A DNA stretch of 34,912 nucleotides from Nanobdellota archaeon (GTDB lineage: Archaea; Nanobdellota; Nanobdellia; Pacearchaeales; GW2011-AR1): the NCBI GenBank assembly GCA_038045485.1, contig JBBSYA010000052.1:1-34912 (forward strand). The letters are read 5' to 3'. Made by a program: the position numbers and the translations under genes. Below the pieces are notes generated by a model. The model did no database searches. It was not told the origin of the DNA and saw only the letters and a program-made list of their open reading frames with translations. Shown here piece by piece: positions 9,477 through 27,893 of the stretch (position 1 is its first letter; the number at the start of each line of letters is the position of its first letter).

Positions 9477-11183
9477 ATGGTAAAAGCAGATATAAAGATA
9501 AGAGAACTTGTTGACAAGGTACAAAGAGGAGAACTAAAGCTCCCAGAAATGCAGAGAAAATATGTTTGGCCTGCAACAAGAGTTAGAGATCTTCTTGATT
9601 CCCTTTATCGTAAATATCCCTCTGGAACAATTTTAGTTTGGGAAACAGATGAAGATATTACCGATAGAAATTTAGCTATAAAAGCTACCAAAAGTCCAAC
9701 AACTTCTCAGAAACTACTTTTATTAGACGGACAACAAAGAGTTACGTCTCTCTCTGCAATTTTGTCAGGAGAACCTATTCAGGTTAAAAATAAAGATAAA
9801 CCTATTGAGATTTTATTTAATTTAGAACATCCAGAAGGTCCACCTACAGAATTAATAGAAGTTGATGAAAAAGATGTTCCAGAAGATTTTGAAGAAAATG
9901 AAGATGAAGAATCTGCTAGAGTAGATATTCAACAAGAATTAAAAAAGAGAACTTTTGTAGTTTCTACTAAAATGCTTAAAAATAATCCCCTATGGGTATC
10001 AGTTTCTGATGTTTTCAAAAAAAGCGAGAGTCAAATATTAAAACCACTTGGAATAAATTCTGATGATTCTAAATGGGAAAAATATTCTAAGAGGTTACAA
10101 GAATTAAAGAAAATTGAAGAGTATGAATATGTTATGCAAATATTAGATAAAAAAATGTCTTATGAAGAAGTAACTGAAATTTTTGTTAGAGTAAACTCTT
10201 TGGGTATTAAATTAAGGGGTTCTGATTTGGCACTGGCACAAATAACATCTAGATGGAAAGGATTTATGGGGCAACTAGAAAATTTCTCTTCAGAATTTGA
10301 TAAGGATGATGGGGAATATTTATTAAATTCAGGTTTACTCGTTAAAACACTTGTTTCATTCGCAACACACCAAAGTAAGTTTAAAACAGTTGGTAAATTA
10401 TCTCTGAAACAATTAGAAAGTTCATGGGAATTAGCTAAGAATGGAATACGTTTTGCAGTCAATTTCATAAAAACTAATGCTCGAGTTGATAGACTGGATT
10501 ATCTTTCTTCCCCTTTCTTAATTATTCCGATAGCTGTTTATGCAATTAATAATAAAGAAAATTTATCTAATGAAAACGAAAAGCTTTTGTTAAAATGGCT
10601 ATTTTACGCTCATATGAGGGGGCATTATAGTTTGGGCTCATCTGAATCTATTCTTGATGCGGATTTGTCTAGCCTATTTAATAAAAATAATCTTGAATAC
10701 TTAAACAATATTTTGTTAAATCAGGTAAAGAGATTCGAAGTTATTTCTGATGATTTAAAAAATAGGGGAACTTCAGGCCCTTTCTTTTCTATGTTATATC
10801 TTATATTAAAAGAAGGCGGGGCTAAGGATTGGTTTACTGGACTCCCTCTGTCAAACAAACATATCGGAAAAAGCCACTCTTTACAGTATCATCATATTTT
10901 CCCGCAATCTCTTCTAAAAGAGAAAGGTTTTGATAGAAAAGAGATAAATGAAATAGCTAATATGGCATTCATAGGTGGGAAGACAAATCGTACGATTACA
11001 AATAAAGAGCCAAAAATATATTTTGAAGATATAATTCAAAAAAAAGGCGAAGGAGCGCTTACTTCTCAGCTTATAACAATGAATAAGGAGTATTGGGAAA
11101 TAAATAATTTTCTTATTTTCACACAAAAGAGAAGAGAATTGATTGCAGAAGAAATAAACAAATTTATGAAAAAACTTGAATAA
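9477..11183 (+). CDS. GmrSD-like DUF262 (ParB-like NTPase) + DUF1524 (His-Me finger nuclease) protein, putative type IV restriction enzyme
   Basis: N-terminal LPEMQRKYVW...LLDSLYRKYPSGTI...LLDGQQRVTSL is the DUF262 hallmark DGQQR. C-terminal LQYHHIFPQS...NEIANMAFIGGKTN is a DUF1524-type H...N...N pattern. Confidence 0.85.
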   Translation: MVKADIKIRELVDKVQRGELKLPEMQRKYVWPATRVRDLLDSLYRKYPSGTILVWETDEDITDRNLAIKATKSPTTSQKLLLLDGQQRVTSLSAILSGEPIQVKNKDKPIEILFNLEHPEGPPTELIEVDEKDVPEDFEENEDEESARVDIQQELKKRTFVVSTKMLKNNPLWVSVSDVFKKSESQILKPLGINSDDSKWEKYSKRLQELKKIEEYEYVMQILDKKMSYEEVTEIFVRVNSLGIKLRGSDLALAQITSRWKGFMGQLENFSSEFDKDDGEYLLNSGLLVKTLVSFATHQSKFKTVGKLSLKQLESSWELAKNGIRFAVNFIKTNARVDRLDYLSSPFLIIPIAVYAINNKENLSNENEKLLLKWLFYAHMRGHYSLGSSESILDADLSSLFNKNNLEYLNNILLNQVKRFEVISDDLKNRGTSGPFFSMLYLILKEGGAKDWFTGLPLSNKHIGKSHSLQYHHIFPQSLLKEKGFDRKEINEIANMAFIGGKTNRTITNKEPKIYFEDIIQKKGEGALTSQLITMNKEYWEINNFLIFTQKRRELIAEEINKFMKKLE

Positions 11184-11287: not shown

Positions 11288-13705
11288 ATGGCAAACGAAA
11301 GAAATACTGAAAATATAGTTAGAGATCATTTCAAGAAAGATCCATTATATAATATAATTAAGTTAGAAGAACAAAAATCTTCTAATAAAAAAATTGATGA
11401 AATTTTACAATATTCTTCTAAATCTGGTTCGGGAGTAGGAAAACCAGAATTTTTAATTACATTCCCTTCTGGTGATGCAGATTATATCATTGTAATAGAA
11501 TGTAAGGCAGATATAACTCTTCATAAAAGCAAAAAAGAGGACAATCCCAAGGATTATGCAGTTGATGGTGTTATTAAATATGCTAAAAAACTTGCTGAGA
11601 AATTTAATGTAATTGCTATTGCAGTAAGTGGAGAAACAGAAAAAGAAATGTTAGTATCTCATTTCCTTTTTAAAAAACAGACAAAAACTTATAGTGAACT
11701 AAAAGAGGGCAATATTCTTTGTTCAATTAACGACTATTTAAGAATATTCGGTAATAATAATTTTGCAGATAATTTAAAAAATATAGACATCATCCAGAAA
11801 GCAATTTATTTGAATGAACTATATCAATCTTATTCTGTAACAGAGAATACTCGATGTACGATGATTAGTGCAATTCTTGTATCATTACTTGATGATCCTT
11901 TTAGAAGTAGTTATAATAAATACAATTCCTCAGCTTCACTTGCTAAAGCAATACTTTCTGCAATTCAAAATGTCTTAGAAAAAAATAATGTGAAAGGCAA
12001 GGGAGAAATGCTTGGAGAATATAACAAAATATTAAATGAGCCTCTTTTTAAAGAAGAAAAAATAAAACATCGAGATGAAAAGGATTACCAATTATCCATA
12101 GAGATTAATAAGGGAATAATAGATTATATTCATGAAAATGTTTATCCACTGGTAGATATGGAACAAAGCGGATTTGATGTTCTTGGAAGATTCTATACTG
12201 AATTCATTAGATATGCGGGAAGTGAACAAAGTCAGGGATTAGTACTAACGCCGTCACACATAACGGATCTTTTTTGTGATTTAGCAAATATAAACGAAAA
12301 TAGTATATTATACGATCCTTGTTGTGGCACTGGTGGATTTTTAATTGCTGGAATGAAAAGGATGTTAAAACTAGCTGGAGATCGAGAAACTAAAATAAAA
12401 TCTATAAAATCAAAACAATTAATAGGCGTTGAATTACGCCCTTCCATGTTTACATATGCTTGTTCTAATATGATGATGAGAGGAGATGGGAAATCAAATA
12501 TTTATTGCGGAGATTGTTTTAGCCTAGAAAATTCAGTAATGAAAAATCATAAACCCAATATTGCTTTTTTAAATCCCCCTTATGATGTTGGAAATGCTGG
12601 GCAAATGAGATTTATAGAACATGCATTAAAAGTAGTTGAACCTCAAAATGGCATTGTAGTAGCAATTGTTCAGATGAGTTGTGCATTTAAAAATGAAAAA
12701 GAATTAATTGCAATTAAAAAAAGAATATTAGAAAAAAATAGATTAATTGCCTCCCTTTCAATGCCTGATGATTTATTTTATCCCATTGGGGTTATAACAA
12801 CCATTATGGTTTTTAAGGCTGGAGAAAAGAATGAAAAGAAAAAAACATGGTTTGGATATTTTAAAGATGATGGGTTTGAAAAAAGAAAGCACAGAGGGAG
12901 AATAGATGCTAGATCTAAATGGTTAGAAATAAAAGATAAATGGATAAGAGCATATAATAATCTTGATGAAGTTCCTGGCATTTCTATTAAAGCAGAAGTA
13001 ACGGAAGAAGAAGAATGGTGTGCAGAAGCTTATATGAAAACAGATTACTCTGTTCTTTCAGAAAAAAACTTTGAGAATAAAATGAGGGACTATGTAGCAT
13101 TTACTATAGAATCAAATACAAGTGCGAATACAAATTCCAAAATTGGAGAAAAAATAAAGAAAAAAAACATTTCTTTATCTGAAAGAAAATGGAAGTGGTT
13201 TAAATATGATTCTATTTTTGAAATAAAGCATGGATTTTATAATAGAAAACCAGATACAAATCCTAACGGAGAGATAATTTTTATAGGGGCTACTGAATTA
13301 AATAATGGAATAACTTCACATCATAAAATAGAAGATATAGAGGCAACGCCCAAAGCAGAAAATGCACCAAATGTGCCTCTTAAAGAAAAAATATTTGAAA
13401 AAAATAGTATTACTGTTTCAAATAATGGTTCTGTTGGATATGCTTTCTATCAACCAATAAATTTTACTTGTTCTCATGATGTAAATCCCCTATATTTAAA
13501 AGAAAAAGAGTTAAATAAATACATTGCAATGTTCTTATGTCCCTTGATAGAATTAGAACAGTATAGATGGGCATTTGGTAGAAAATGGAGACCAATAAGA
13601 ATGCCTCTATCTGAAATAAAATTACCTATAAATGAAAAAGGAAATCCTGATTGGAATTTTATGGAAAATTATATTAAATCTTTGCCTTATAGTTCAAACT
13701 TATAA
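11288..13705 (+). CDS. Single-polypeptide restriction-modification enzyme: PD-(D/E)xK nuclease + gamma-class N6-adenine methyltransferase + one HsdS-like TRD (Type IIG/IIB-like)
   Basis: N-terminal GDADYIIVIECKAD is a D...ExK motif. The methylase part has GLVLTPSHITDLF, motif I DPCCGTGGFL and motif IV FLNPPYD. The C-terminal roughly 190 aa look HsdS-like (WKWFKYDSIFEIKHG ... IRMPLSEIKLPINEKGNPDWNFMENYIKSL). A GGGGGT SD-like sequence precedes the ATG. Confidence 0.85.
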   Translation: MANERNTENIVRDHFKKDPLYNIIKLEEQKSSNKKIDEILQYSSKSGSGVGKPEFLITFPSGDADYIIVIECKADITLHKSKKEDNPKDYAVDGVIKYAKKLAEKFNVIAIAVSGETEKEMLVSHFLFKKQTKTYSELKEGNILCSINDYLRIFGNNNFADNLKNIDIIQKAIYLNELYQSYSVTENTRCTMISAILVSLLDDPFRSSYNKYNSSASLAKAILSAIQNVLEKNNVKGKGEMLGEYNKILNEPLFKEEKIKHRDEKDYQLSIEINKGIIDYIHENVYPLVDMEQSGFDVLGRFYTEFIRYAGSEQSQGLVLTPSHITDLFCDLANINENSILYDPCCGTGGFLIAGMKRMLKLAGDRETKIKSIKSKQLIGVELRPSMFTYACSNMMMRGDGKSNIYCGDCFSLENSVMKNHKPNIAFLNPPYDVGNAGQMRFIEHALKVVEPQNGIVVAIVQMSCAFKNEKELIAIKKRILEKNRLIASLSMPDDLFYPIGVITTIMVFKAGEKNEKKKTWFGYFKDDGFEKRKHRGRIDARSKWLEIKDKWIRAYNNLDEVPGISIKAEVTEEEEWCAEAYMKTDYSVLSEKNFENKMRDYVAFTIESNTSANTNSKIGEKIKKKNISLSERKWKWFKYDSIFEIKHGFYNRKPDTNPNGEIIFIGATELNNGITSHHKIEDIEATPKAENAPNVPLKEKIFEKNSITVSNNGSVGYAFYQPINFTCSHDVNPLYLKEKELNKYIAMFLCPLIELEQYRWAFGRKWRPIRMPLSEIKLPINEKGNPDWNFMENYIKSLPYSSNL

Positions 13706-14380
13706 CCTCGCAATCTTACCAGCATCAGTAAGTTCTATTCCTTTTTCTGTAGAAACTAAATCCATATCCTTTAGTTCGTCAATTGCTCGGTATAGCATTG
13801 CCGTAGATAAATCGATTTTAGCTGCTAAATCTCCAATAGATTCGTACTTCTTTTTTCCGACTTCTTCAAGAATTTTCTTTTGGCTTTCAGTTAAATGAAA
13901 ACTTAGTCTTGGAAGATAAACAATAGAACTTTTATCTTCTTCAGGATTGTAAGCAATCTTACTAACTCGTTCGTGCCTGGCGTAAGCTGCAAAAAGCAAT
14001 CCAATAGCCTTAGTTTTCCTTCCAGCAGTAATATTCACAAAAATATGATCTTCTTTCGGCTGTAAATCAATAACCTCTACAGCTTTTCGAGCCACTTCAA
14101 CTATATCATAAACATCAGTCTTCACAATTTTTATCTCTAGAACCTTCCCTAATGATTCCTGGATGAGTTTTACAGAAGCTTCCTGTTCTTTATCAGGATC
14201 CTTATCAATTAGAAGTATAAGTCTCTCAGGCCCGAGCCGTGTCGCAGCCAAAAGAACTGGTTCAGGATTATATAATGTCGCGATAAGCACCTTTTTTCCC
14301 ATGATTTCTTCGTTTGCCTGGTTTTCAGGCTTAATTTCCTCAATAATAAAGGGTTTTTCTTCGTTTATATAAGTTTCCAT
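13700..14380 (-). CDS. csa3: Csa3-like CARF + wHTH transcriptional regulator (cas_HTH type)
   Basis: The Rossmann-like N-domain has KKVLIATLYNPEPVLLAA and NITAGRKTKAIGLLFAAY, a CARF-type Thr/Gly loop. The C-terminal wHTH is LTESQKKILEEV...SIGDLAAKIDLSTAMLYRAIDELKDMDLV. Overall architecture is colinear with Sulfolobus Csa3 as I recall it. A TATA-like sequence on the minus strand (14402-14410) supports the 14380 start; an alternative ATG is at 14302. Confidence 0.65.
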   Translation of the reverse strand: METYINEEKPFIIEEIKPENQANEEIMGKKVLIATLYNPEPVLLAATRLGPERLILLIDKDPDKEQEASVKLIQESLGKVLEIKIVKTDVYDIVEVARKAVEVIDLQPKEDHIFVNITAGRKTKAIGLLFAAYARHERVSKIAYNPEEDKSSIVYLPRLSFHLTESQKKILEEVGKKKYESIGDLAAKIDLSTAMLYRAIDELKDMDLVSTEKGIELTDAGKIARL

Positions 14381-14401
14381 AGGAAATAGAAAGGTAACCT
14401 A

Positions 14402-14461
14402 TTTATATATCTTTCTACATAATAGTATATAATTGTATTAAACAATAGAAAAGCTTATAAA
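14402..14461. promoter_or_regulatory. Divergent promoter region between csa3-like gene and AAA+ ATPase operon
   Basis: TTTATATAT (14402-14410) lies 22 nt from the minus-strand ATG. CTTATAAA (14454-14461) lies 24 nt upstream of the plus-strand ATG at 14486. Short imperfect inverted repeats lie between them (CTTTCTA / TAGAAAAG). Confidence 0.5.
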
Positions 14462-14485
14462 CCAGAAAAAGAGTAATCCTATACA

Positions 14486-15970
14486 ATGGTTAATAATTTA
14501 CTTAAACAATTTATAAAAGAATCAAGTCTATCTGAAAATAATAAACTTTCTATTAAATTTCTAGTCGATTCCATAAATGGAGAAATAAATCAGTTTACAG
14601 ACAAGTCTTATCTTTTTGAAGGCAGCCCAGGTATAGGAAAAACTTATTTTGTAGAGAGTTTTCTTAAAATGTTAGATTTTCCTGTTTTATATCTTGGTCC
14701 TTTCAAATTAGAAGGAAAGAATATAAGAAAATTTGATAGTCTTAAACAAATAATGGAAGAAATCCATAGTTTAGAAAAAGGAATAATTTACTTAGATGAT
14801 ATACAAAATTCATTAGAATTCGAAAGAGACGGCATGGGCGATCCTCATTTAAATGATATTGAAGGTAAAAGATTCCTAAATTTATTAGAATTAGTCAAAA
14901 GAAGCAACAAAAAGTTATTTCTTATTATGACTGTTAATGACTCGAGTTTTATGGAAGATTCTTGGAAGGATAGAATAGAAACTTTTATAGATTTATTGGA
15001 GCCTTTTGAAAAAAGCAAAAAGATTTTTCTAAATAAAAAATATGGTAATTTAATAGGTAAAAATATAATCAATGAAATTGCCTCTAAATCAATTGGTTAT
15101 AATTTTAGAAATCTTGATGAAGTAATAAGAATGGCTTATCGTTTTGGTAATGGAATAATTAATCTCAAATCTACAAACAAAGCATTTTCTAGCTATACTC
15201 CTTCTGGGCTTGCAAACTATGATATTGAATTTAAATCAAATTTGAATTTTAACAATGTTTTCGGCCATAACAAAATAAAAAAGGAACTGAAAAAATTAGC
15301 ATTATATAAAAATAATAAAAATAAACTAGACAAATTACAAATAAAAAGAAATAATTTTTTCATATTCTCTGGAAATCATGGTATAGGAAAAACTCATATG
15401 GCGCGAGCATTAGCTGGTGAGTTAAAATTGCCTTTAATTAAAATTAGCGCGTGGGATATTCATTCACCCAGACATGGAATTACTAAAATAATGAACACAG
15501 CTAGCCGATACAAGAATTGCATTATTCTTATTGATGAGGCAGATAAATTACTAGGTCTACATGCTTATTCTATGGAAGAAGAAGGGGTTTTGCTTGGAGA
15601 AATGAATCGGCAAATAGATGATGCTGCCAGAGAAATTAAATCAATAATAATTCTTTCAGTTAATAATCTAACTAGACTTGGAAAAGCTATGAAAGATAGA
15701 TTTACTGTATTGGAGTTCAATAATCCGCCAATAGAAGACAGAAGAGAATTTGTAAATAATCTAATAAGCAAAAGTGGACTAAACCTTTCAGTAACTGCCG
15801 AAGATATTGCTCAAATGACAGATGGCAGAAATTATAGGGATATTCAAAGAATTTGGAATGATGTAGTCTTTTATTATTTAGAAAATAAAGAAATGGATAA
15901 GAATATTCTTACCGATTTAATTGTCCCCATCAATATTAATGAAAGGAGAGTTCATACTGGAATTGGATAA
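14486..15970 (+). CDS. Tandem classic-clade AAA+ ATPase (two ATPase modules, no recognisable N-terminal substrate domain)
   Basis: D1 has Walker A GSPGIGKT, Walker B IIYLDD (no Glu) and an SRH-like WKDRIETFIDLLEP. D2 has Walker A GNHGIGKT, Walker B ILIDEADKL, sensor-1 LSVNN and AMKDRFTVLEFNNPPIEDRREF. Confidence 0.85.
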   Translation: MVNNLLKQFIKESSLSENNKLSIKFLVDSINGEINQFTDKSYLFEGSPGIGKTYFVESFLKMLDFPVLYLGPFKLEGKNIRKFDSLKQIMEEIHSLEKGIIYLDDIQNSLEFERDGMGDPHLNDIEGKRFLNLLELVKRSNKKLFLIMTVNDSSFMEDSWKDRIETFIDLLEPFEKSKKIFLNKKYGNLIGKNIINEIASKSIGYNFRNLDEVIRMAYRFGNGIINLKSTNKAFSSYTPSGLANYDIEFKSNLNFNNVFGHNKIKKELKKLALYKNNKNKLDKLQIKRNNFFIFSGNHGIGKTHMARALAGELKLPLIKISAWDIHSPRHGITKIMNTASRYKNCIILIDEADKLLGLHAYSMEEEGVLLGEMNRQIDDAAREIKSIIILSVNNLTRLGKAMKDRFTVLEFNNPPIEDRREFVNNLISKSGLNLSVTAEDIAQMTDGRNYRDIQRIWNDVVFYYLENKEMDKNILTDLIVPININERRVHTGIG

Positions 15971-15971
15971 T

Positions 15972-16130
15972 ATGAATAAACAAGATAAAATTTGGGAATT
16001 ATATGAAAGAACGATGCAAGATATAGGAACATTGAAACATTTTTGTAAAGATAATCCTCGCGCATTAAAACAAATAACTTTTATTGATATAGATATAATT
16101 AATCTTAGAGAAAGAGGATTAAAAAAATGA
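15972..16130 (+). CDS. Tiny hypothetical protein (52 aa), operonic with the ATPase
   Basis: The ATG is 1 nt after the ATPase stop. The sequence looks helical. The ORF-track start at 15921 overlaps the ATPase, so the internal ATG is preferred. Confidence 0.35.
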   Translation: MNKQDKIWELYERTMQDIGTLKHFCKDNPRALKQITFIDIDIINLRERGLKK

Positions 16131-16378
16131 AAATACAGGATTTTTCAAGGCTAAAAAAAGGAGATGTAATCATAATTAGCTGGCTGGACCCTAAAAATTT
16201 AGAATTAGGAAATCTCGCCCCTACTTTAAATATAGGTTTTTATTATTCGCAGGATAAAAGAGAAATTTTAATAAGCAATATAATTAGTGGGAAAGGTAAA
16301 TCCTCAAAGTTTAATGTTACTATTATTCCTAAAAATTTAGTAACTAATCTCGAAGTGGTGAGGAGAAAAATAAAATGA
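16127..16378 (+). CDS. Small hypothetical protein (83 aa), operonic
   Basis: ATGA start/stop overlap with the preceding ORF. No recognisable domain. It is followed by a GC-rich hairpin. Confidence 0.4.
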   Translation: MKIQDFSRLKKGDVIIISWLDPKNLELGNLAPTLNIGFYYSQDKREILISNIISGKGKSSKFNVTIIPKNLVTNLEVVRRKIK

Positions 16379-16385
16379 ATAACCC

Positions 16386-16399
16386 CGCCCTAAAGGGCG
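16386..16399 (+). terminator. GC-rich hairpin after the ATPase operon
   Basis: CGCCC-TAAA-GGGCG lies 8 nt after the stop at 16378. It is conspicuous in an AT-rich background. Confidence 0.4.
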
Positions 16400-16549
16400 A
16401 GGTATCCGAATAACAAACAAAAAAATGCTAACACAAACAACAAACAAGCTAAGCAGAAAAAATCTTACTGATAAACTTAAATTAAACTCCGAGGAAGAAG
16501 GCAATTCCTCACTCTGTTTGAAAGCAGAGGTATCCTTGCCTTTGATGTA

Positions 16550-16732
16550 ATGAAATTTAGAAAAATAATCCAAGAGCAGAAACAGAAGATGAAAGCGGAA
16601 CGTAATAAAAGAATAATTGAAGAACACGAGAAAAATGTAAGCGAAGAAGAAATAGCTAAGATGCTTAATATCCATTATTCTACTGTTCATTTGATAATCA
16701 GAAATTTTAAGGAGAAGAATGAAAAAATTTAG
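16550..16732 (+). CDS. Small HTH protein (60 aa)
   Basis: SEEEIAKMLNIHYSTVHLIIRNF is a typical helix-turn-helix of the resolvase/transposase-N/sigma-r4 style, preceded by a Lys/Glu-rich helix. A further 59-codon ORF (16719-16898) overlaps its end. Confidence 0.4.
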   Translation: MKFRKIIQEQKQKMKAERNKRIIEEHEKNVSEEEIAKMLNIHYSTVHLIIRNFKEKNEKI

Positions 16733-17040
16733 ATTATCTTATGTTATTGAAAAGGGAATAGCATTAGAAGCTCAAAATGAAGACGATGCTTGCGAGAGAT
16801 TTTGGAATCTGCCTGAAGGGAAAGAAGCGGATAGAATTGAAGAGGTTGAAGAATTAAAAGAGTAGCATAAAGGCTACACGCCTACCCATCAAAAAATGAA
16901 AATAAACCACATATCTAAATTTTTTAGTCCAAATAAATCTGAGGGATTATTATTTTGATGACACAACAGGTTCAGACTGGCTTGGATATTTTTCTATTAA
17001 ATCTTCGATTGGTTCATAAGCGGTTTTAGAGCTATCGCCT

Positions 17041-17124
17041 GAAATAGGTGGGGATTCGAACCCCAGAAGGCACTAAGCCATTCGGTTGACAACCGAACCC
17101 GTTTGACCGCTTCGGTACCCTCAA
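17041..17124 (-). pseudogene. tRNA-like sequence: class-II-type body, GUC in the anticodon position, no pairable acceptor stem
   Basis: Read on the minus strand, the D arm is CCG-AAGCGGTCAAA-CGG. The anticodon arm is TTCGG-TTGTCAA-CCGAA. The long variable arm is T-GGC-TTAGT-GCC-TTC. The T arm is TGGGG-TTCGAAT-CCCCA. The 5' TTGAGGG and 3' CCTATTT cannot pair. Confidence 0.4.
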
Positions 17125-17210: not shown

Positions 17211-17254
17211 TGACATTAGTAATGACATTATAAATGACATTAAAGATGACACAA
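17211..17254 (+). repeat. Four direct TGACAYWA repeats with exact 12-bp phasing (iteron-like)
   Basis: TGACATTA occurs at 17211, 17223 and 17235, and TGACACAA at 17247. The array overlaps the first ATG of the 17234 ORF. Confidence 0.65.
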
Positions 17255-18863: not shown

Positions 18864-20252
18864 TTATTTTATACAACCAAAACCTTCTCTTGAATGACAC
18901 TCTTCCTTTAAGGAGCATACTCCTGTTTTATTCATAAAGGGACAGGGTGGTAGAGACAAAATATCTTTTTCTCCTTTCTCCAATTTCACGATTATCTCTT
19001 TAGTTTTAGCTAAGATTTCATTTGTATTTTTATAAGTAATTTCAAATGCCTGAATAAAATTATTTTTCTTTGGAGAAATTATGAATATAATCCCTTTAGT
19101 TTTGCCGTAATTAGCTACCACTATTCCTAGTTCTGCGATATAATATTCATTAGGTCTTGTTTGAATATTATTACTCATATTTGCTTTTACTATATATGGT
19201 ATTATTTTAGAATCTTGATTACCCGAACTTTTAGTATTAGCCCACCTATAGCCAACATGAAGACGTGGTTCTAGACTAGATTTAAATAATTCTTTTCTTT
19301 CACCAAAAGATAATTTAATTGGAAGTTTTTTAACAAGTGCCCCTAGAAATGATTGAGATTCTTTTTTTTCTTGATCATTTTCTCCATCTTCTTTAAGATT
19401 GTACTTTCTTGGAGAAATTATATTCCAAGTAGAAAAGAAATTTTTTGAAGCATGATACTTTGTTTTTACTTCTAGTAATCTTTTAGTCATCTCTTCATCG
19501 TAGGTTAAATTAATAGCTTGTTGCAACTGTTCTGTAGAAAGAGGTTCCAATTTATCGCAATTGCAAAGATTAGCCTCAAAAAACTGGCATCCTTTTTCAT
19601 GATACCTGCATCTGCCAAGGGAAATCGGATTCTTAGTTTTGATAGCTTCATCTAAAGTTTTTATTCTTGTTTTTATCAGTGAATCTATTTTGCTGGGATC
19701 TTTTATTTCTATTTTAAATGCTTTAAATGGAAATGTTCCTGAATCTTTCATAAAAATTAAATAATTTATTTTATCGTGAGAAGGATGAATAGCGGAATAA
19801 AAGCAGACTTGTTCTACATCTTGAGGATATTTAGATATTACTTCTTCAGCCGTTTCAGGAATTTCATTTTTAGTTTTTAAATCAAATATAGAATCTCCTA
19901 TTCTACAATCAATTCTGCCTTTAACTCCAGGTAAATCAACCCAAGCCCCATCAATATTTCCCTCATTAACTACAAAATCTGGAAATGTTTCTAACCATTT
20001 TCCTGTGATTCCATGTAATGTAGTTCCCCAATTAAGTTTTTTTTGTATGACCATGGGTTTTTCTACTTTTTCACTGGTTCTAGCCCAATAGGTTTGAGCA
20101 GGGTTACACAATTCAGTAACAATATAGTAATCTGCAACATTAGGTTTCTTTTTAGTATCTTGTATCATCATTCTTAACATTGAAGATAAAGATTCATTAT
20201 AGGTAAATCCCCCAGACACACGTTCATTTACGAAATCAACCATATTTTCCAT
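18864..20252 (-). CDS. Cas4/RecB-like PD-(D/E)xK nuclease with Fe-S-type cysteine cluster plus uncharacterised C-terminal half carrying a second Cys cluster
   Basis: In order: TELCNPAQTYW (N-terminal Cys), NWGTTLHG, GRIDCRIGDSIFDLKTK (D...D-x-K), QVCFYSAI (QxxxY), then CRYHEKGCQFFEANLCNC. The C-terminal end has PPCPFMNKTGVCSLKEECHSREGFGC. Confidence 0.65.
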   Translation of the reverse strand: MENMVDFVNERVSGGFTYNESLSSMLRMMIQDTKKKPNVADYYIVTELCNPAQTYWARTSEKVEKPMVIQKKLNWGTTLHGITGKWLETFPDFVVNEGNIDGAWVDLPGVKGRIDCRIGDSIFDLKTKNEIPETAEEVISKYPQDVEQVCFYSAIHPSHDKINYLIFMKDSGTFPFKAFKIEIKDPSKIDSLIKTRIKTLDEAIKTKNPISLGRCRYHEKGCQFFEANLCNCDKLEPLSTEQLQQAINLTYDEEMTKRLLEVKTKYHASKNFFSTWNIISPRKYNLKEDGENDQEKKESQSFLGALVKKLPIKLSFGERKELFKSSLEPRLHVGYRWANTKSSGNQDSKIIPYIVKANMSNNIQTRPNEYYIAELGIVVANYGKTKGIIFIISPKKNNFIQAFEITYKNTNEILAKTKEIIVKLEKGEKDILSLPPCPFMNKTGVCSLKEECHSREGFGCIK

Positions 20253-21621: not shown

Positions 21622-23943
21622 ATGGCTGAAAAAGAATTAGTTGCAAGATTAAGAGTACAAGAAGCACTGCAGGATGATGCCTATAAGGGAATTGCTAGAA
21701 TAGATGCTGAAACAATGAAAGATATTGGAGTTAAACGAGGAGATATTGTTTCGATTAAAGGCGGAAAAGAAACTGTTGCTATTGTTGACAGAGCTTATCC
21801 TGCTGATGTTGGCGAAGGAATAATTAGAATTGATGGAATCTTAAGAAGAAATGCAAAAACAGGAGTTGGTGAAACTGTTTCTGTTAAAAAAGCTGAAATT
21901 AAAGAAGCCAAAAAAGTTTTGATTGCACCGGCACAAAAAGGAATAATGGTTCAAGCTGATGCTGATACACTTCGTTCTGGTTTACTTGGAAGAGCAGTTG
22001 TTAAAGGTGATGTTTTAGTTCTTGGCGGAGTTCAAAGAAGAAGAGATGTTATGGAGGGGATGGATATGGATGAAATTTTTGGAGATTTAGATAAAATGTT
22101 TGGCGGAGCTTTAGGAAATATGGGTGGAATGGGTTTCGGTGGAATACAACAGATAAAATTTGTTGTTGCAAGTACTAGTCCAAATTCAGCAGTTGTTATT
22201 ACAGAAAATACAGAAGTTCAACTTTCAACTAAAGCTGTTGAAATCTCAGAAGATTCTGGAAAATCTTTAGAAGTAACCTATGAGGATATTGGCGGATTAA
22301 CAGAAGAAGTTAAAAAAATTAGAGAAATGGTCGAACTACCATTAAAACATCCTGAAATTTTTGAAAGACTTGGAGTAGAGCCTCCAAAAGGAGTTTTATT
22401 ACATGGTCCTCCTGGAACAGGTAAAACCTTATTAGCAAAAGCAGTTGCAGCTGAAACAGAAGCGAATTTTATTTTGTTAAACGGACCTGAAATTATGAGC
22501 AAATTTTATGGGGAATCAGAAAAGCGAGTAAGAGAAATTTTTGATGAGGCAGAAAAAAATGCTCCAAGTATTATCTTTATTGATGAAATTGATGCAATCG
22601 CGCCTAAACGAGAAGATGTTCAAGGTGAAGTAGAGCGAAGAGTTGTAAGCCAGTTGTTAACAATGATGGACGGATTAAAATCCCGAGGGAAAGTGGTTGT
22701 TATTGGAGCAACAAATCGTCCGAATTCTATTGATCCTGCATTAAGACGTCCTGGAAGATTTGATAGAGAAGTTGAAATTAGTGTTCCTGATAAAGCCGGA
22801 AGATTAGCAATATTAAAAATACATAGTAGAAACATGCCTCTTGAAAAAAGTGTAGATTTAGATAAACTCGCTTCTGTAACTCATGGATTTGTTGGTGCAG
22901 ATTTATCTTCCCTTGCAAAAGAAGCAGCAATGGTTGTTCTTAGAAGAGTTATTCCTAAAATTCCAACAAAAGAAGGCGAGCAAATTCCTGAAGAGGTATT
23001 AAAAGAACTTAGAATTACAGATAAAGAATTTGAAGAAGCATTAAAAGTTGTTCGTCCAAGCGCCATGAGAGAAGTTTTAGTTGAAACTCCGAATATAAAA
23101 TGGGAAGATGTTGGTGGTTTAGATAAAGTTAAACAAGAACTAAAAGAAGCTGTTGAGTGGCCATTAAAACATCCAGAATCTTTTAAGAGATTGGGAATAA
23201 GGCCTCCAAAGGGTTTGTTACTTTACGGACCACCAGGAACAGGTAAGACTCTATTAGCAAAAGCTGTAGCAAAAGAAAGCGAAGCTAATTTTATTCAAGT
23301 TAAAGGTCCAAGTCTATTAAGTATGTGGGTTGGAGAATCTGAAAAAGGCGTAAGAAAAATATTTGAAAGAGCAAGACAAGTAGCTCCTTGTATAATCTTT
23401 TTTGATGAAATCGATTCTCTTGCAGGAAGAAGAGGAATGGGTTCTGAAGGCGGAAGTAAAGTTGCAGATCATGTTTTAAATCAATTACTTGCTGAAATGG
23501 ATGGAATAGAAGAAAATTCAGATATAGTTATAATCGGAGCAACAAATCGTCCAGATATTTTAGATGCAGCAATACTCCGACCAGGAAGATTTGATAGAAT
23601 TTTGCTTGTCGGCCCAACAGACAAAAAAGGTAGATTAGAGATTCTTAAAATACACACTAAAAATATGCCCCTTGCGAAAGATGTAGATATTAATGAATTA
23701 GCAGAAAAAACTGATGGTTATGTAGGAAGCGATTTAGAAGCCCTATGTAGAGAAGCAGCAATGTTAGAATTAAGGAAGAATATTGAAGCTAAAATAGTTA
23801 CTGCTGAACATTTTGAACAAGCCCTAGCAAAAGTTAGACCAAGTGTAACAAAGCAAGATATAGAAAAATACAAAAAAGTAGAGGAAAATTATCTTAAATC
23901 TGCTAAAGCTGCACTCGAAAGCAATTTGGCCTATCTTGGTTAG
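21622..23943 (+). CDS. Cdc48/VCP/VAT-type AAA+ ATPase
   Basis: The N-domain has GDIVSIKG and IIRIDG. D1 has GPPGTGKT, IIFIDEID and GATNRPNSIDPALRRPGRFD. D2 has GPPGTGKT, IIFFDEID and GATNRPDILDAAILRPGRFD. Confidence 0.95.
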   Translation: MAEKELVARLRVQEALQDDAYKGIARIDAETMKDIGVKRGDIVSIKGGKETVAIVDRAYPADVGEGIIRIDGILRRNAKTGVGETVSVKKAEIKEAKKVLIAPAQKGIMVQADADTLRSGLLGRAVVKGDVLVLGGVQRRRDVMEGMDMDEIFGDLDKMFGGALGNMGGMGFGGIQQIKFVVASTSPNSAVVITENTEVQLSTKAVEISEDSGKSLEVTYEDIGGLTEEVKKIREMVELPLKHPEIFERLGVEPPKGVLLHGPPGTGKTLLAKAVAAETEANFILLNGPEIMSKFYGESEKRVREIFDEAEKNAPSIIFIDEIDAIAPKREDVQGEVERRVVSQLLTMMDGLKSRGKVVVIGATNRPNSIDPALRRPGRFDREVEISVPDKAGRLAILKIHSRNMPLEKSVDLDKLASVTHGFVGADLSSLAKEAAMVVLRRVIPKIPTKEGEQIPEEVLKELRITDKEFEEALKVVRPSAMREVLVETPNIKWEDVGGLDKVKQELKEAVEWPLKHPESFKRLGIRPPKGLLLYGPPGTGKTLLAKAVAKESEANFIQVKGPSLLSMWVGESEKGVRKIFERARQVAPCIIFFDEIDSLAGRRGMGSEGGSKVADHVLNQLLAEMDGIEENSDIVIIGATNRPDILDAAILRPGRFDRILLVGPTDKKGRLEILKIHTKNMPLAKDVDINELAEKTDGYVGSDLEALCREAAMLELRKNIEAKIVTAEHFEQALAKVRPSVTKQDIEKYKKVEENYLKSAKAALESNLAYLG

Positions 23944-27531: not shown

Positions 27532-27547
27532 TTGAGCAAATGCTCAA
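27532..27547. promoter_or_regulatory. Palindromic operator at the ArsR-family gene promoter
   Basis: TTGAGCA-AA-TGCTCAA lies immediately downstream of GAAACATTTAAATA (27517-27530). It overlaps the first in-frame ATG (27540). Confidence 0.55.
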
Positions 27548-27551
27548 CTAT

Positions 27552-27893
27552 ATGGAAAATATGAAAGAACAAAAAATAAATAAAAATGTTATGCAGTTTT
27601 TCTCAAGTTTAGCCGACGAGACAAGACTTAAAATTATACTGAGCATAGCAGAAAAACCAAGAACAGTAAACGATATTTATAGTTTCGTAGGCAAAGACAA
27701 GATGACACTTTCAGCAATATCTCACCAGCTTAAGACCCTTAGCGATACGGGGATTATATTCTCCATTAAAAAAGGAAAAGAAAAGTATTTTGAACTATCA
27801 GATAAATTTTGCTGGTGCGTTCTAAGAGATGCGTTCAGCCAATTTAACAGCAAACTTAAAATTAAATGCAAAAAGTGTGAAAATCACAAGTAG
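27552..27893 (+). CDS. ArsR/SmtB-family metalloregulator
   Basis: [50 protein letters not shown] is the ArsR wHTH pattern. The C-terminal cysteines are CWC and CKKCENH. The start could also be 27540 or 27561. Confidence 0.8.

Follow-up and report, generated by a model that had tools for sequence, protein, structure and literature searches.

The window analysed here is a stretch of 34,912 nucleotides from a Nanobdellota archaeon (contig JBBSYA010000052.1, assembly GCA_038045485.1), with a G+C content of ~31%. It carries a divergent gene pair formed by a transcription factor of the Csa3/CARF3 family, in which a CARF domain is followed by a winged helix-turn-helix (wHTH) domain, and by an ATPase made of two classic AAA modules. 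The interpretation that we favour, with moderate confidence, is that of a transcriptional switch together with the operon it would control, a module recurring in variable, defence-rich regions of the CRISPR-poor DPANN archaea. It rests on the identities of the two proteins, on their conserved linkage, on palindromes conserved together with them and on a defence-island context. A previous sequence-only reading of the window had described a CARF-wHTH gene, a tandem AAA gene and two small genes behind it; these four open reading frames (ORFs), the 105-bp divergent region with TATA-like boxes, a GC hairpin (16382-16403) and a separate Cdc48 gene were all recovered. The two core genes are as follows.

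13700-14380, minus strand: Csa3-family CARF-wHTH transcription factor, 226 residues; CARF domain ~28-160, wHTH domain ~163-226
14486-15970, plus strand: tandem classic AAA ATPase without N-domain, 494 residues
~14597-15205, plus strand: ATPase module D1, Walker A GSPGIGKT, Walker B DD
~15233-15895, plus strand: ATPase module D2, Walker A GNHGIGKT, Walker B ILIDE, N393, R405

The CARF-wHTH regulator

All sequence and fold tests that were run identify the regulator as a genuine member of the Csa3/CARF3 family. The PADLOC profile CARF3 covers its full length (1.1e-69), the NCBIfam Csa3 model TIGR01884 scores 77.2 bits for a cut-off of 60.2, and Pfam recognises HFX_2341_N, CARF_Card1 and HTH_24, the latter at residues 164-209. 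A phmmer search of the PDB returned no direct sequence match and a profile search only a weak match to Can2; this point was settled by structure prediction and Foldseek. The best PDB matches of the AlphaFold model (predicted local distance difference test, pLDDT, 82.4) are the apo and cyclic tetra-adenylate (cA4)-bound structures of S. solfataricus Csa3 (2WTE, 6WXQ, 6W11), with an alignment spanning 208 columns of 2WTE, followed by other CARF proteins, namely Can2, Crn1, Csm6, Cam1 and Cad1. The colinearity with Csa3 that had been read from the sequence is borne out by the profiles and by the fold.

The ligand pocket of Csa3 is built from two motifs. Motif 2, L-x2-G-h-R, binds the cA4 phosphates (PMC8699464). 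It corresponds in the regulator to the β4-α4 loop I117-T-A-G120-R121-K122, with the basic residue shifted, a lysine being found at position +2. Residues N116, T118, G120, R121 and K122 are invariant across 26 homologues. Motif 1, in the β1-α1 loop, reads T-h-G-F-(N/D)-E-x4-R in Csa3 (PMC8699464). By-eye comparison places T35-L-Y-N-P-E40...R48 at this position, T, h and E being retained and G-F replaced.

Purifying selection on the protein is extreme: in a related strain with 94% DNA identity to the window (L080), the coding region from M27 onwards differs by 35 synonymous and 0 non-synonymous changes. No fewer than 1,091 clusters (90% identity) make up the subfamily, and identity to the query stays at 71% or more throughout the best 120 of them.

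The true start of the protein may be M27, at 14302, since residues 1-25 are predicted to be disordered and since this N-terminal extension is broken by a stop codon in some orthologues (L001, L014). To note, the first seven codons of the long ORF (M-E-T-Y-I-N-E, ATGGAAACTTATATAAACGAA, 14360-14380) show DNA-level conservation between species and resemble a BRE/TATA element (BRE, transcription factor B recognition element), and the frame is open in most loci. The conserved ATGGAAAnnTATATAAA was considered as a second promoter, a reading that was dropped because the frame from its ATG stays open in most loci; it may be the coding sequence of a conserved M-E-x-Y-I-N/K N-terminus, the true start being ambiguous.

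The tandem AAA ATPase

Pfam AAA matches two stretches of the ATPase. Only ~37 residues, forming two helices, precede D1; the CDC48_N and CDC48_2 domains are missing, and the C-terminal tail (482-494) is predicted to be flexible. D1 associates a GxPGIGKT Walker A motif with a DD, and not DE, Walker B motif. D2 possesses GxxGxGKT, hhhhDE (D350/E351), the sensor-1 residue N393 and the arginine finger R405, all invariant in the family alignment, as are both Walker A motifs. The D2 Walker B motif had been described as DEAD-type: the hhhhDE part is present, but the following A-D is not conserved in the family. A family profile matches the D2 of VAT, Cdc48 and p97 at ~1e-44, and the model (pLDDT 84.5) superposes on the D1-D2 of Cdc48, p97, Rix7, NVL and AFG2 over ~510-550 columns (TM-score ~0.6). 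Pfam, the family alignment and the superposition on Cdc48/p97 D1-D2 agree on a tandem classic AAA protein devoid of N-domain.

The HbYX (hydrophobic-tyrosine-X) pattern is how PAN and Cdc48 dock on the 20S proteasome. C-termini of this type (hydrophobic-(F/Y)-x; M-F-G, as in P0012, I-Y-G and similar) are found in 19 of 33 members of the ATPase family.

This family is small and evolves fast, as does the cargo encoded downstream. An exhaustive HMMER search returned ~50 full-length tandem-AAA clusters at 50% identity among 1.84 billion representatives. The ATPases of the window and of L080 share 95% protein identity; across species, the CARF proteins are 56-83% identical, as compared to 28-44% for the ATPases of the same loci.

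Linkage of the two genes across genomes

The neighbourhood survey confirms the link between regulator and ATPase suspected from the window. Fourteen loci were anchored on the ATPase, and are hence unbiased for CARF (P0001, P0003, P0004, P0008, P0011, P0012, P0015, P0016, P0017 and five metagenome loci). In 11 of them, the ATPase has a divergent CARF-wHTH gene upstream, either next to it or with one small gene between, at ATPase identities down to ~31%; over all the genomes compared, the linkage is observed at ATPase identities of 28-47%. The reciprocal survey was anchored on CARF in GTDB species representatives (69 loci, 62 usable). A tandem AAA gene is located upstream of CARF in ~18 of the usable loci, and a single-AAA relative, usually with a 178-residue partner, in ~7 further ones; an AAA ATPase of either kind is thus found upstream in ~25/62 CARF-anchored DPANN genomes. 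The pairing is not a matter of chance. The ATPase is almost always accompanied by this regulator, which for its part serves other cargo as well: the CARF family being far larger than the ATPase family, the ATPase is one frequent target and not the sole partner.

The window ATPase is 100% identical to a protein of a metagenome-assembled genome (MAG) annotated as ‘Nanoarchaeota archaeon’, and the related loci originate almost all from MAGs labelled Woese-, Pace-, Nano- and Micrarchaeota, which are DPANN archaea.

Among the ATPase loci without CARF, two exceptions have sufficient upstream sequence: a membrane-anchored protein with a transmembrane segment and a wHTH domain occupies the CARF position (L007, 4621-5133; L086, 2440-3105). 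The sensor domain has apparently been swapped there and the regulator-plus-ATPase logic kept. Two GTDB genomes (L017/L051; L042/L073) carry two CARF copies, of which one copy each is paired with a tandem AAA gene.

The intergenic control region

The 105 bp that separate the two genes (14381-14485) harbor TATA-like boxes on both strands and two operator-like palindromes:

14402-14411, minus strand: putative TATA box for CARF transcription, reading GATATATAAA on this strand and separated from the ATG (14380) by 21 nt; conserved across loci
14413-14430: operator-like palindrome O2 (TTCTAC ATAATA GTATAT), 1 mismatch to the consensus; position conserved in orthologous loci
14433-14450: operator-like palindrome O1 (TTGTAT TAAACA ATAGAA), starting 20 bp after the start of O2
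14447-14461, plus strand: putative BRE/TATA of the ATPase promoter (AGAAAAGC TTATAAA), TATA at 14455-14461

The TATA box of the ATPase is separated by 24 nt from the ATG at 14486, a spacing that suggests a leaderless mRNA; the 21 nt of the CARF gene would likewise fit a leaderless transcript. The 43-bp interval separating the divergent TATA boxes is taken up by O1 and O2, whose outer half-sites overlap both BREs; that of O1 abuts the BRE/TATA of the ATPase promoter.

The significance of these putative operators comes solely from the cross-locus comparison. DNA upstream of CARF remains alignable across species with ATPases just 30-45% identical, and yields an 18-bp consensus, TTCTAY-N6-RTAGAA, present in two copies between the divergent BRE/TATA elements. 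The expression TTCTA[CT]N4-8[AG]TAGAA has 21 matches in 702 kb of loci, 20 of which are positioned within 218 nt upstream of CARF. In 44 of 64 loci, the best palindrome scores 10/12 or more, as compared to 6.7% of shuffles, and a second one is found 19-20 bp away (~two helical turns) in 23 of the 64. Most loci with a directly adjacent ATPase display the palindrome, then the TATA box, then ~20-30 nt to the ATG. The palindrome is present in ATPase loci with CARF (L078, L079, L080, L084) and absent from those without (L007, L086), hence it belongs to the regulator. An 18-bp palindrome next to BRE/TATA has also been described for Csa3a of Sulfolobales (PMC8699464).

These data bear on another view of the regulator, that of an ordinary Csa3 serving cas/CRISPR loci elsewhere in the genome through type III cA4, the ATPase being an unrelated neighbor or an accessory. 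Three of ~62 loci (L034, L035, L040) indeed place the orthologous CARF gene beside Cas6 and cas-like genes of a type I-B-like system, with matches to Cas7/Csh2, Cas5b and Cas3 HD in the locus scanned (L034), and the regulator keeps motif 2 of the cA4 pocket. This adjacency confirms the Csa3 ancestry of the family, and the term ‘orphan’ used in the sequence-only reading has to be restricted to the window, where the regulator stands without cas genes. Within ±7 kb, however, the palindrome is almost exclusively a feature of the sequence upstream of CARF (20/21), and it overlaps the ATPase promoter; the 11/14 linkage of ATPase and CARF is far above chance, and neither an array in the 35 kb nor a cas gene among the ORFs scanned there was found. 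CRISPR-Cas and restriction-modification are, moreover, under-represented in DPANN archaea, in which several PDCs are enriched (2026 survey, PMC12988326). A remnant of a CRISPR regulon is therefore very unlikely.

Defence-island context

The setting of the module is a defence island, and not a proteasome or ribosome-biogenesis operon, in line with what had been proposed. Pfam and PADLOC scans identified two restriction enzymes on the CARF side of the window:

9477-11183: GmrSD type IV restriction enzyme
11288-13705, plus strand: Type IIG restriction-modification enzyme

In the related loci, a UvrD-PD-(D/E)XK helicase-nuclease of ~880 residues, GajB-like in PADLOC, occurs within 7 kb of CARF in 17 cases, and a Cas4-like nuclease of ~393 residues recurs near CARF in 10. 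Bro-N and ORF6N neighbors match the PADLOC candidates PDC-S13 (6e-116, 1e-114) and PDC-S05 (3e-125), and a DUF1016-like neighbor matches PDC-S02 (9e-131). Schlafen/AlbA_2, GmrSD, methyltransferases and DndB are further recurrent neighbors. The combination of regulator and ATPase matches no named defence system in the PADLOC and PHROGs scans, as had been suspected.

The UvrD-PD-(D/E)XK and Cas4-like genes recur on the downstream side of CARF (GTDB loci L009-L077), and may be the other anchor of the variable region.

This setting also has to be weighed against a housekeeping role, in which a core Woesearchaeales-type regulator would sense an endogenous nucleotide or metabolite, the ATPase would be an inducible chaperone or proteasome activator, and the defence neighbors would merely mark a recombination hot spot. 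Such a stress or proteostasis pair would agree with the great abundance of the CARF family (at least 1,091 clusters), with the 35 synonymous for 0 non-synonymous changes between strains, with Cdc48/p97 as nearest structures of the ATPase and the HbYX-like tails of its family, and with the lack of CRISPR at most CARF loci. The ATPase family, however, is rare (~50 clusters) and fast-evolving, unlike a core chaperone, and a canonical Cdc48 is already encoded in the window. Genes on both sides of the module are replaced between near-identical strains, some genomes with two CARF copies have the ATPase at one only, and the neighbors are overwhelmingly of the defence type. A housekeeping pair is in our view doubtful, but keeps real weight given the conservation of the regulator.

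Downstream genes and module boundaries

The genes that follow the ATPase and the end of the module are listed below.

15972-16130, plus strand: small cargo gene ORF3, 52 residues; its ATG lies inside the TTG-initiated ORF of 15921, 1 nt after the ATPase stop
16127-16378, plus strand: small cargo gene ORF4, 83 residues; ATGA overlap with ORF3
16380-16548: strain-specific 169-bp insert carrying the GC hairpin (16382-16403); absent from L080, not a conserved part of the module
16550-16732, plus strand: small HTH protein, 60 residues, Pfam HTH_SB/HTH_23; next gene of the same operon in L080
16719-16865, plus strand: 48-residue cargo ORF, shared with L080
17041-17123, minus strand: tRNA called Asp(GTC), 83 nt, with a long variable arm

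The two micro-ORFs had been taken as coupled parts of the module. They are real genes, drawn from a set of small genes that is reshuffled behind the ATPase, and for this reason represent interchangeable cargo rather than core subunits. ORF3 is kept in L080, with 6 synonymous and 7 non-synonymous differences that indicate weak constraint, and the ATPase operon of L009 encodes a homologue. ORF4 differs from its L080 counterpart by 8 synonymous and 2 non-synonymous changes, and has a paralogue elsewhere in L080. Neither has a family match in Pfam, NCBIfam, PADLOC or PHROG, and the small ORFs of L001 and L004 are not homologues of either. The ATPases of other loci are followed by varied small overlapping ORFs (Zn-ribbon, transmembrane, MCM_OB, macro, GIY-YIG, HD, HAD), several families of which recur at different positions among loci. 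Recurrent small partners of the ATPase include families of 97, 159 and 178 residues.

Comparison with L080 delineates the module. The shared DNA begins precisely at the CARF stop (13699) and ends at 16989, just before the tRNA. The flanks differ: another Type IIG enzyme is found on one side, and on the other the tRNA of the window is replaced by a Dcm/HATPase pair in L080. This strain also has two additional ORFs, one of them Fic-like, inserted after the ATPase. The GC hairpin that had been noted behind the two small ORFs sits in the 169-bp segment that the 94%-identical L080 lacks.

Within this insert (16380-16548), GAGGTATCC is found at 16399 and again at 16528, an arrangement that a small insertion may have left behind. 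A second cassette is present at 15864-17830 of L080 (430 residues, then 82, 79 and 46 residues), with paralogues of ORF4 and of the 48-residue ORF, indicating that the small genes travel as cassettes.

A discrete 3.3-kb module with different flanks in two strains, a tRNA gene ~50 bp past the limit of the DNA common to both, tandem operators between divergent promoters, and long runs of small overlapping ORFs with MCM_OB, GIY-YIG, Zn-ribbon and Fic-like cargo might also be expected from the switch of a mobile element or provirus. The CARF-wHTH protein would then be a CI/Cro-like repressor, and the ATPase and small ORFs the early operon. No integrase, capsid, terminase or replication hallmark is found, however, among the module proteins scanned. 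The ATPase has 0 matches in IMG/VR and in GenBank phages, CARF has 1 match, in a giant-virus bin, among the 2.9 million viral contigs of IMG/VR, and PHROGs yields generic AAA matches only; a viral origin was rejected on these counts. So was an element integrated at the tRNA: the search for an att-type repeat of the tRNA-Asp in the window found chance-level short matches only, and nine related loci contain no tRNA. A mobile-element switch is thus quite improbable.

Other features of the window

The Type IIG gene (11288-13705, plus strand) is convergent with the CARF gene (13700-14380, minus strand), with a 6-nt overlap at 13700-13705; in L080, the different Type IIG gene that follows CARF is on the same strand as CARF. 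Beyond the restriction genes, this flank comprises PolB, RsmB and an M24 peptidase, which are housekeeping proteins, and an IS4-type transposase. The other flank contains the tRNA, unannotated ORFs, the canonical Cdc48 (21622-23943), with both CDC48_N and CDC48_2 domains, and copper ATPases.

The long arm of the tRNA-Asp(GTC) at 17041-17123 and its Rfam score of only 35.6 bits are unusual for a tRNA-Asp. Between this gene and the next ORFs lies a 12-nt tandem repeat, TGACATTAGAAA (17211-17251, 3.4 copies), which contains a TAGAAA half-site or BRE-like word. A 462-residue protein (18864-20252, minus strand) has no Pfam or PADLOC match, and matches PHROG 1706 (‘CRISPR/Cas system associated’) at 7.6e-9. 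It harbors a PD-(D/E)XK-like D...DxK motif and two C-terminal-type cysteine clusters, and looks like a duplicated Cas4-like nuclease. A 117-residue wHTH protein (27540-27893, plus strand), encoded upstream of a copper P-type ATPase, matches Csa3 profiles limited to the wHTH (7e-11); it probably belongs to the ArsR-type metal regulators and has no relation to the CARF-ATPase pair.

Proposed mechanism

According to the switch-and-operon model, the regulator, probably as a dimer, would sit on each of the two 18-bp palindromes. Bound there, it would most likely occlude access of transcription factor B (TFB) and of the TATA-binding protein (TBP) to both promoters, resulting in auto-repression and in repression of the operon. 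A nucleotide-type ligand in the twofold CARF pocket would shift the wHTH domains, and release or activate the operon; cA4 is known to shift the wHTH domains of Csa3a (PMC8699464). In the ATPase, D1, with its DD Walker B motif, is likely to be a hydrolysis-poor, ATP-binding assembly ring for a hexamer, and D2 would be the active motor. As the output of the switch, the ATPase would remodel or unfold proteins, followed in the operon by fast-turnover small cargo genes, and might engage a peptidase, for example the 20S proteasome, via the HbYX-like tail of most family members. The module may have an antiviral role. The label ‘effector’ given by the sequence-only reading and control by a cyclic oligoadenylate stay at the level of what may be inferred.

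Several points weigh against this model. The pattern of the palindrome allowing 2 mismatches has 71 matches in the AT-rich window for 51.5 expected, which is not significant, and part of its conservation may be plain promoter conservation, because the outer half-sites coincide with the BRE positions. The ligand may be other than cA4, because motif 1 of Csa3 is altered to T-L-Y-N-P-E. A core, non-defence function would also be consistent with so strongly conserved a regulator. Pore loop 1 of the ATPase D2 is P-R-H-G, without an aromatic residue, and is gapped or variable across 33 family members; this would speak against a generic threading unfoldase, or may reflect rapid target-driven change. 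The window ATPase and its closest relatives end in G-I-G and not in HbYX, and PADLOC matched no system on the ATPase beyond generic AAA similarity. Only ~30-40% of the CARF loci have an AAA neighbor. Finally, the hosts are CRISPR-poor, no CRISPR array was found in the 35-kb window, and no cas gene, cyclic-oligoadenylate synthase or CD-NTase match among the window ORFs scanned. Yet a transcriptional switch with its operon accounts better than any rival for the linkage, the operator placement, the island turnover and the absence from viral collections.

A bolder version of this model, which we consider improbable, would see the Csa3-type sensor re-used, in DPANN archaea that lost most of their CRISPR systems, as master switch and genomic anchor of interchangeable defence cassettes, with an HbYX-tailed, Cdc48-like unfoldase without N-domain as its most frequent output, feeding viral or self proteins to the 20S proteasome upon a nucleotide alarm. 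If true, the response would be a transcriptionally gated, proteolysis-based immune or abortive one. The alarm may then not be a cyclic oligoadenylate, and could even come from the host cell of these symbionts, and an arms race with viral targets would account for how rapidly the ATPase and its pore loops evolve.

Comparison with known systems

Of the receptors for cyclic-oligoadenylate immune signals, CARF domains are the best known, yet many CARF genes are located outside CRISPR loci. A large, near-invariant Csa3 subfamily with a candidate operator and a recurrent target operon raises a directly testable question. It points to a new class of CARF output, a Cdc48-like remodeler and not a nuclease, protease, deaminase or pore. 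DPANN archaea appear defence-poor with current tools, and a widespread uncharacterised module would help to fill this gap. The searchable literature, outside of which the 2020 CARF census (Makarova et al., NAR) lies, describes no Csa3-controlled Cdc48-like operon and no DPANN Csa3 subfamily, and a full-text search returned no paper tying Csa3 to Woese-, Pace-, Nano- or Micrarchaeota.

The closest relatives of the regulator are Csa3a and Csa3b of Sulfolobales, with which it shares the two-domain architecture, the Gly/basic motif 2 and the 18-bp palindrome near BRE/TATA. It differs from them by its low identity to solved Csa3 (15-16%), by its altered motif 1 and by its context: most members of its family are outside CRISPR loci, and their usual divergent target is an AAA operon instead of cas or adaptation genes. 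Among the features set for Csa3/CARF3, CRISPR adjacency is the one that the regulator lacks, and its binding of cA4 is putative.

CARF domains outside CRISPR loci and combined with AAA+ modules are illustrated by RtcR and related CARF-AAA+-HTH fusions, and by MM_0565 of Methanosarcina mazei (PMC4012209; PMC7465815). In RtcR, the AAA+ module is an NtrC-type sigma-54 activator fused to CARF, whereas here it is a separate Cdc48-like protein under putative transcriptional control.

The ATPase itself resembles the type II classic AAA unfoldases Cdc48/VAT/p97, Rix7, NVL and AFG2 by its D1-D2 fold, Walker A and B motifs, sensor 1 and arginine finger. In contrast to Cdc48-type proteins, it possesses neither a double-psi-barrel N-domain nor a conserved pore-loop aromatic, and its D1 Walker B is DD; lacking the N-domain and a canonical pore loop, it was not filed as a Cdc48.

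Classic-type AAA remodelers are also part of two defence systems, IetAS and the TRIP13-HORMA branch of the cyclic-oligonucleotide-based antiphage signalling system (CBASS), to which D2 gives weak matches (IetA, 2e-17; TRIP13, 1e-11). Membership of either was rejected. The NCBIfam model IteA scores 46 bits for a cut-off of 510, the IetA profile match covers D2 only, and no subtilase is present in the window or in related loci. For CBASS type III (TRIP13-HORMA-CD-NTase), the weak TRIP13 match is also restricted to D2, and no HORMA or CD-NTase was detected among the scanned ORFs or as a partner in related loci.

BrxR/CapW-type WYL-wHTH proteins are bacterial island regulators, encoded upstream of interchangeable defence cargo, which bind inverted repeats in their own promoter. 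The regulator described here is likewise a conserved ligand-sensing wHTH protein upstream of diverse cargo. It is not a member of that family, as its sensor is a CARF and not a WYL domain and its promoters are of the archaeal BRE/TATA type. The resemblance suggests that a BrxR-like ‘island regulator’ logic operates in archaea.

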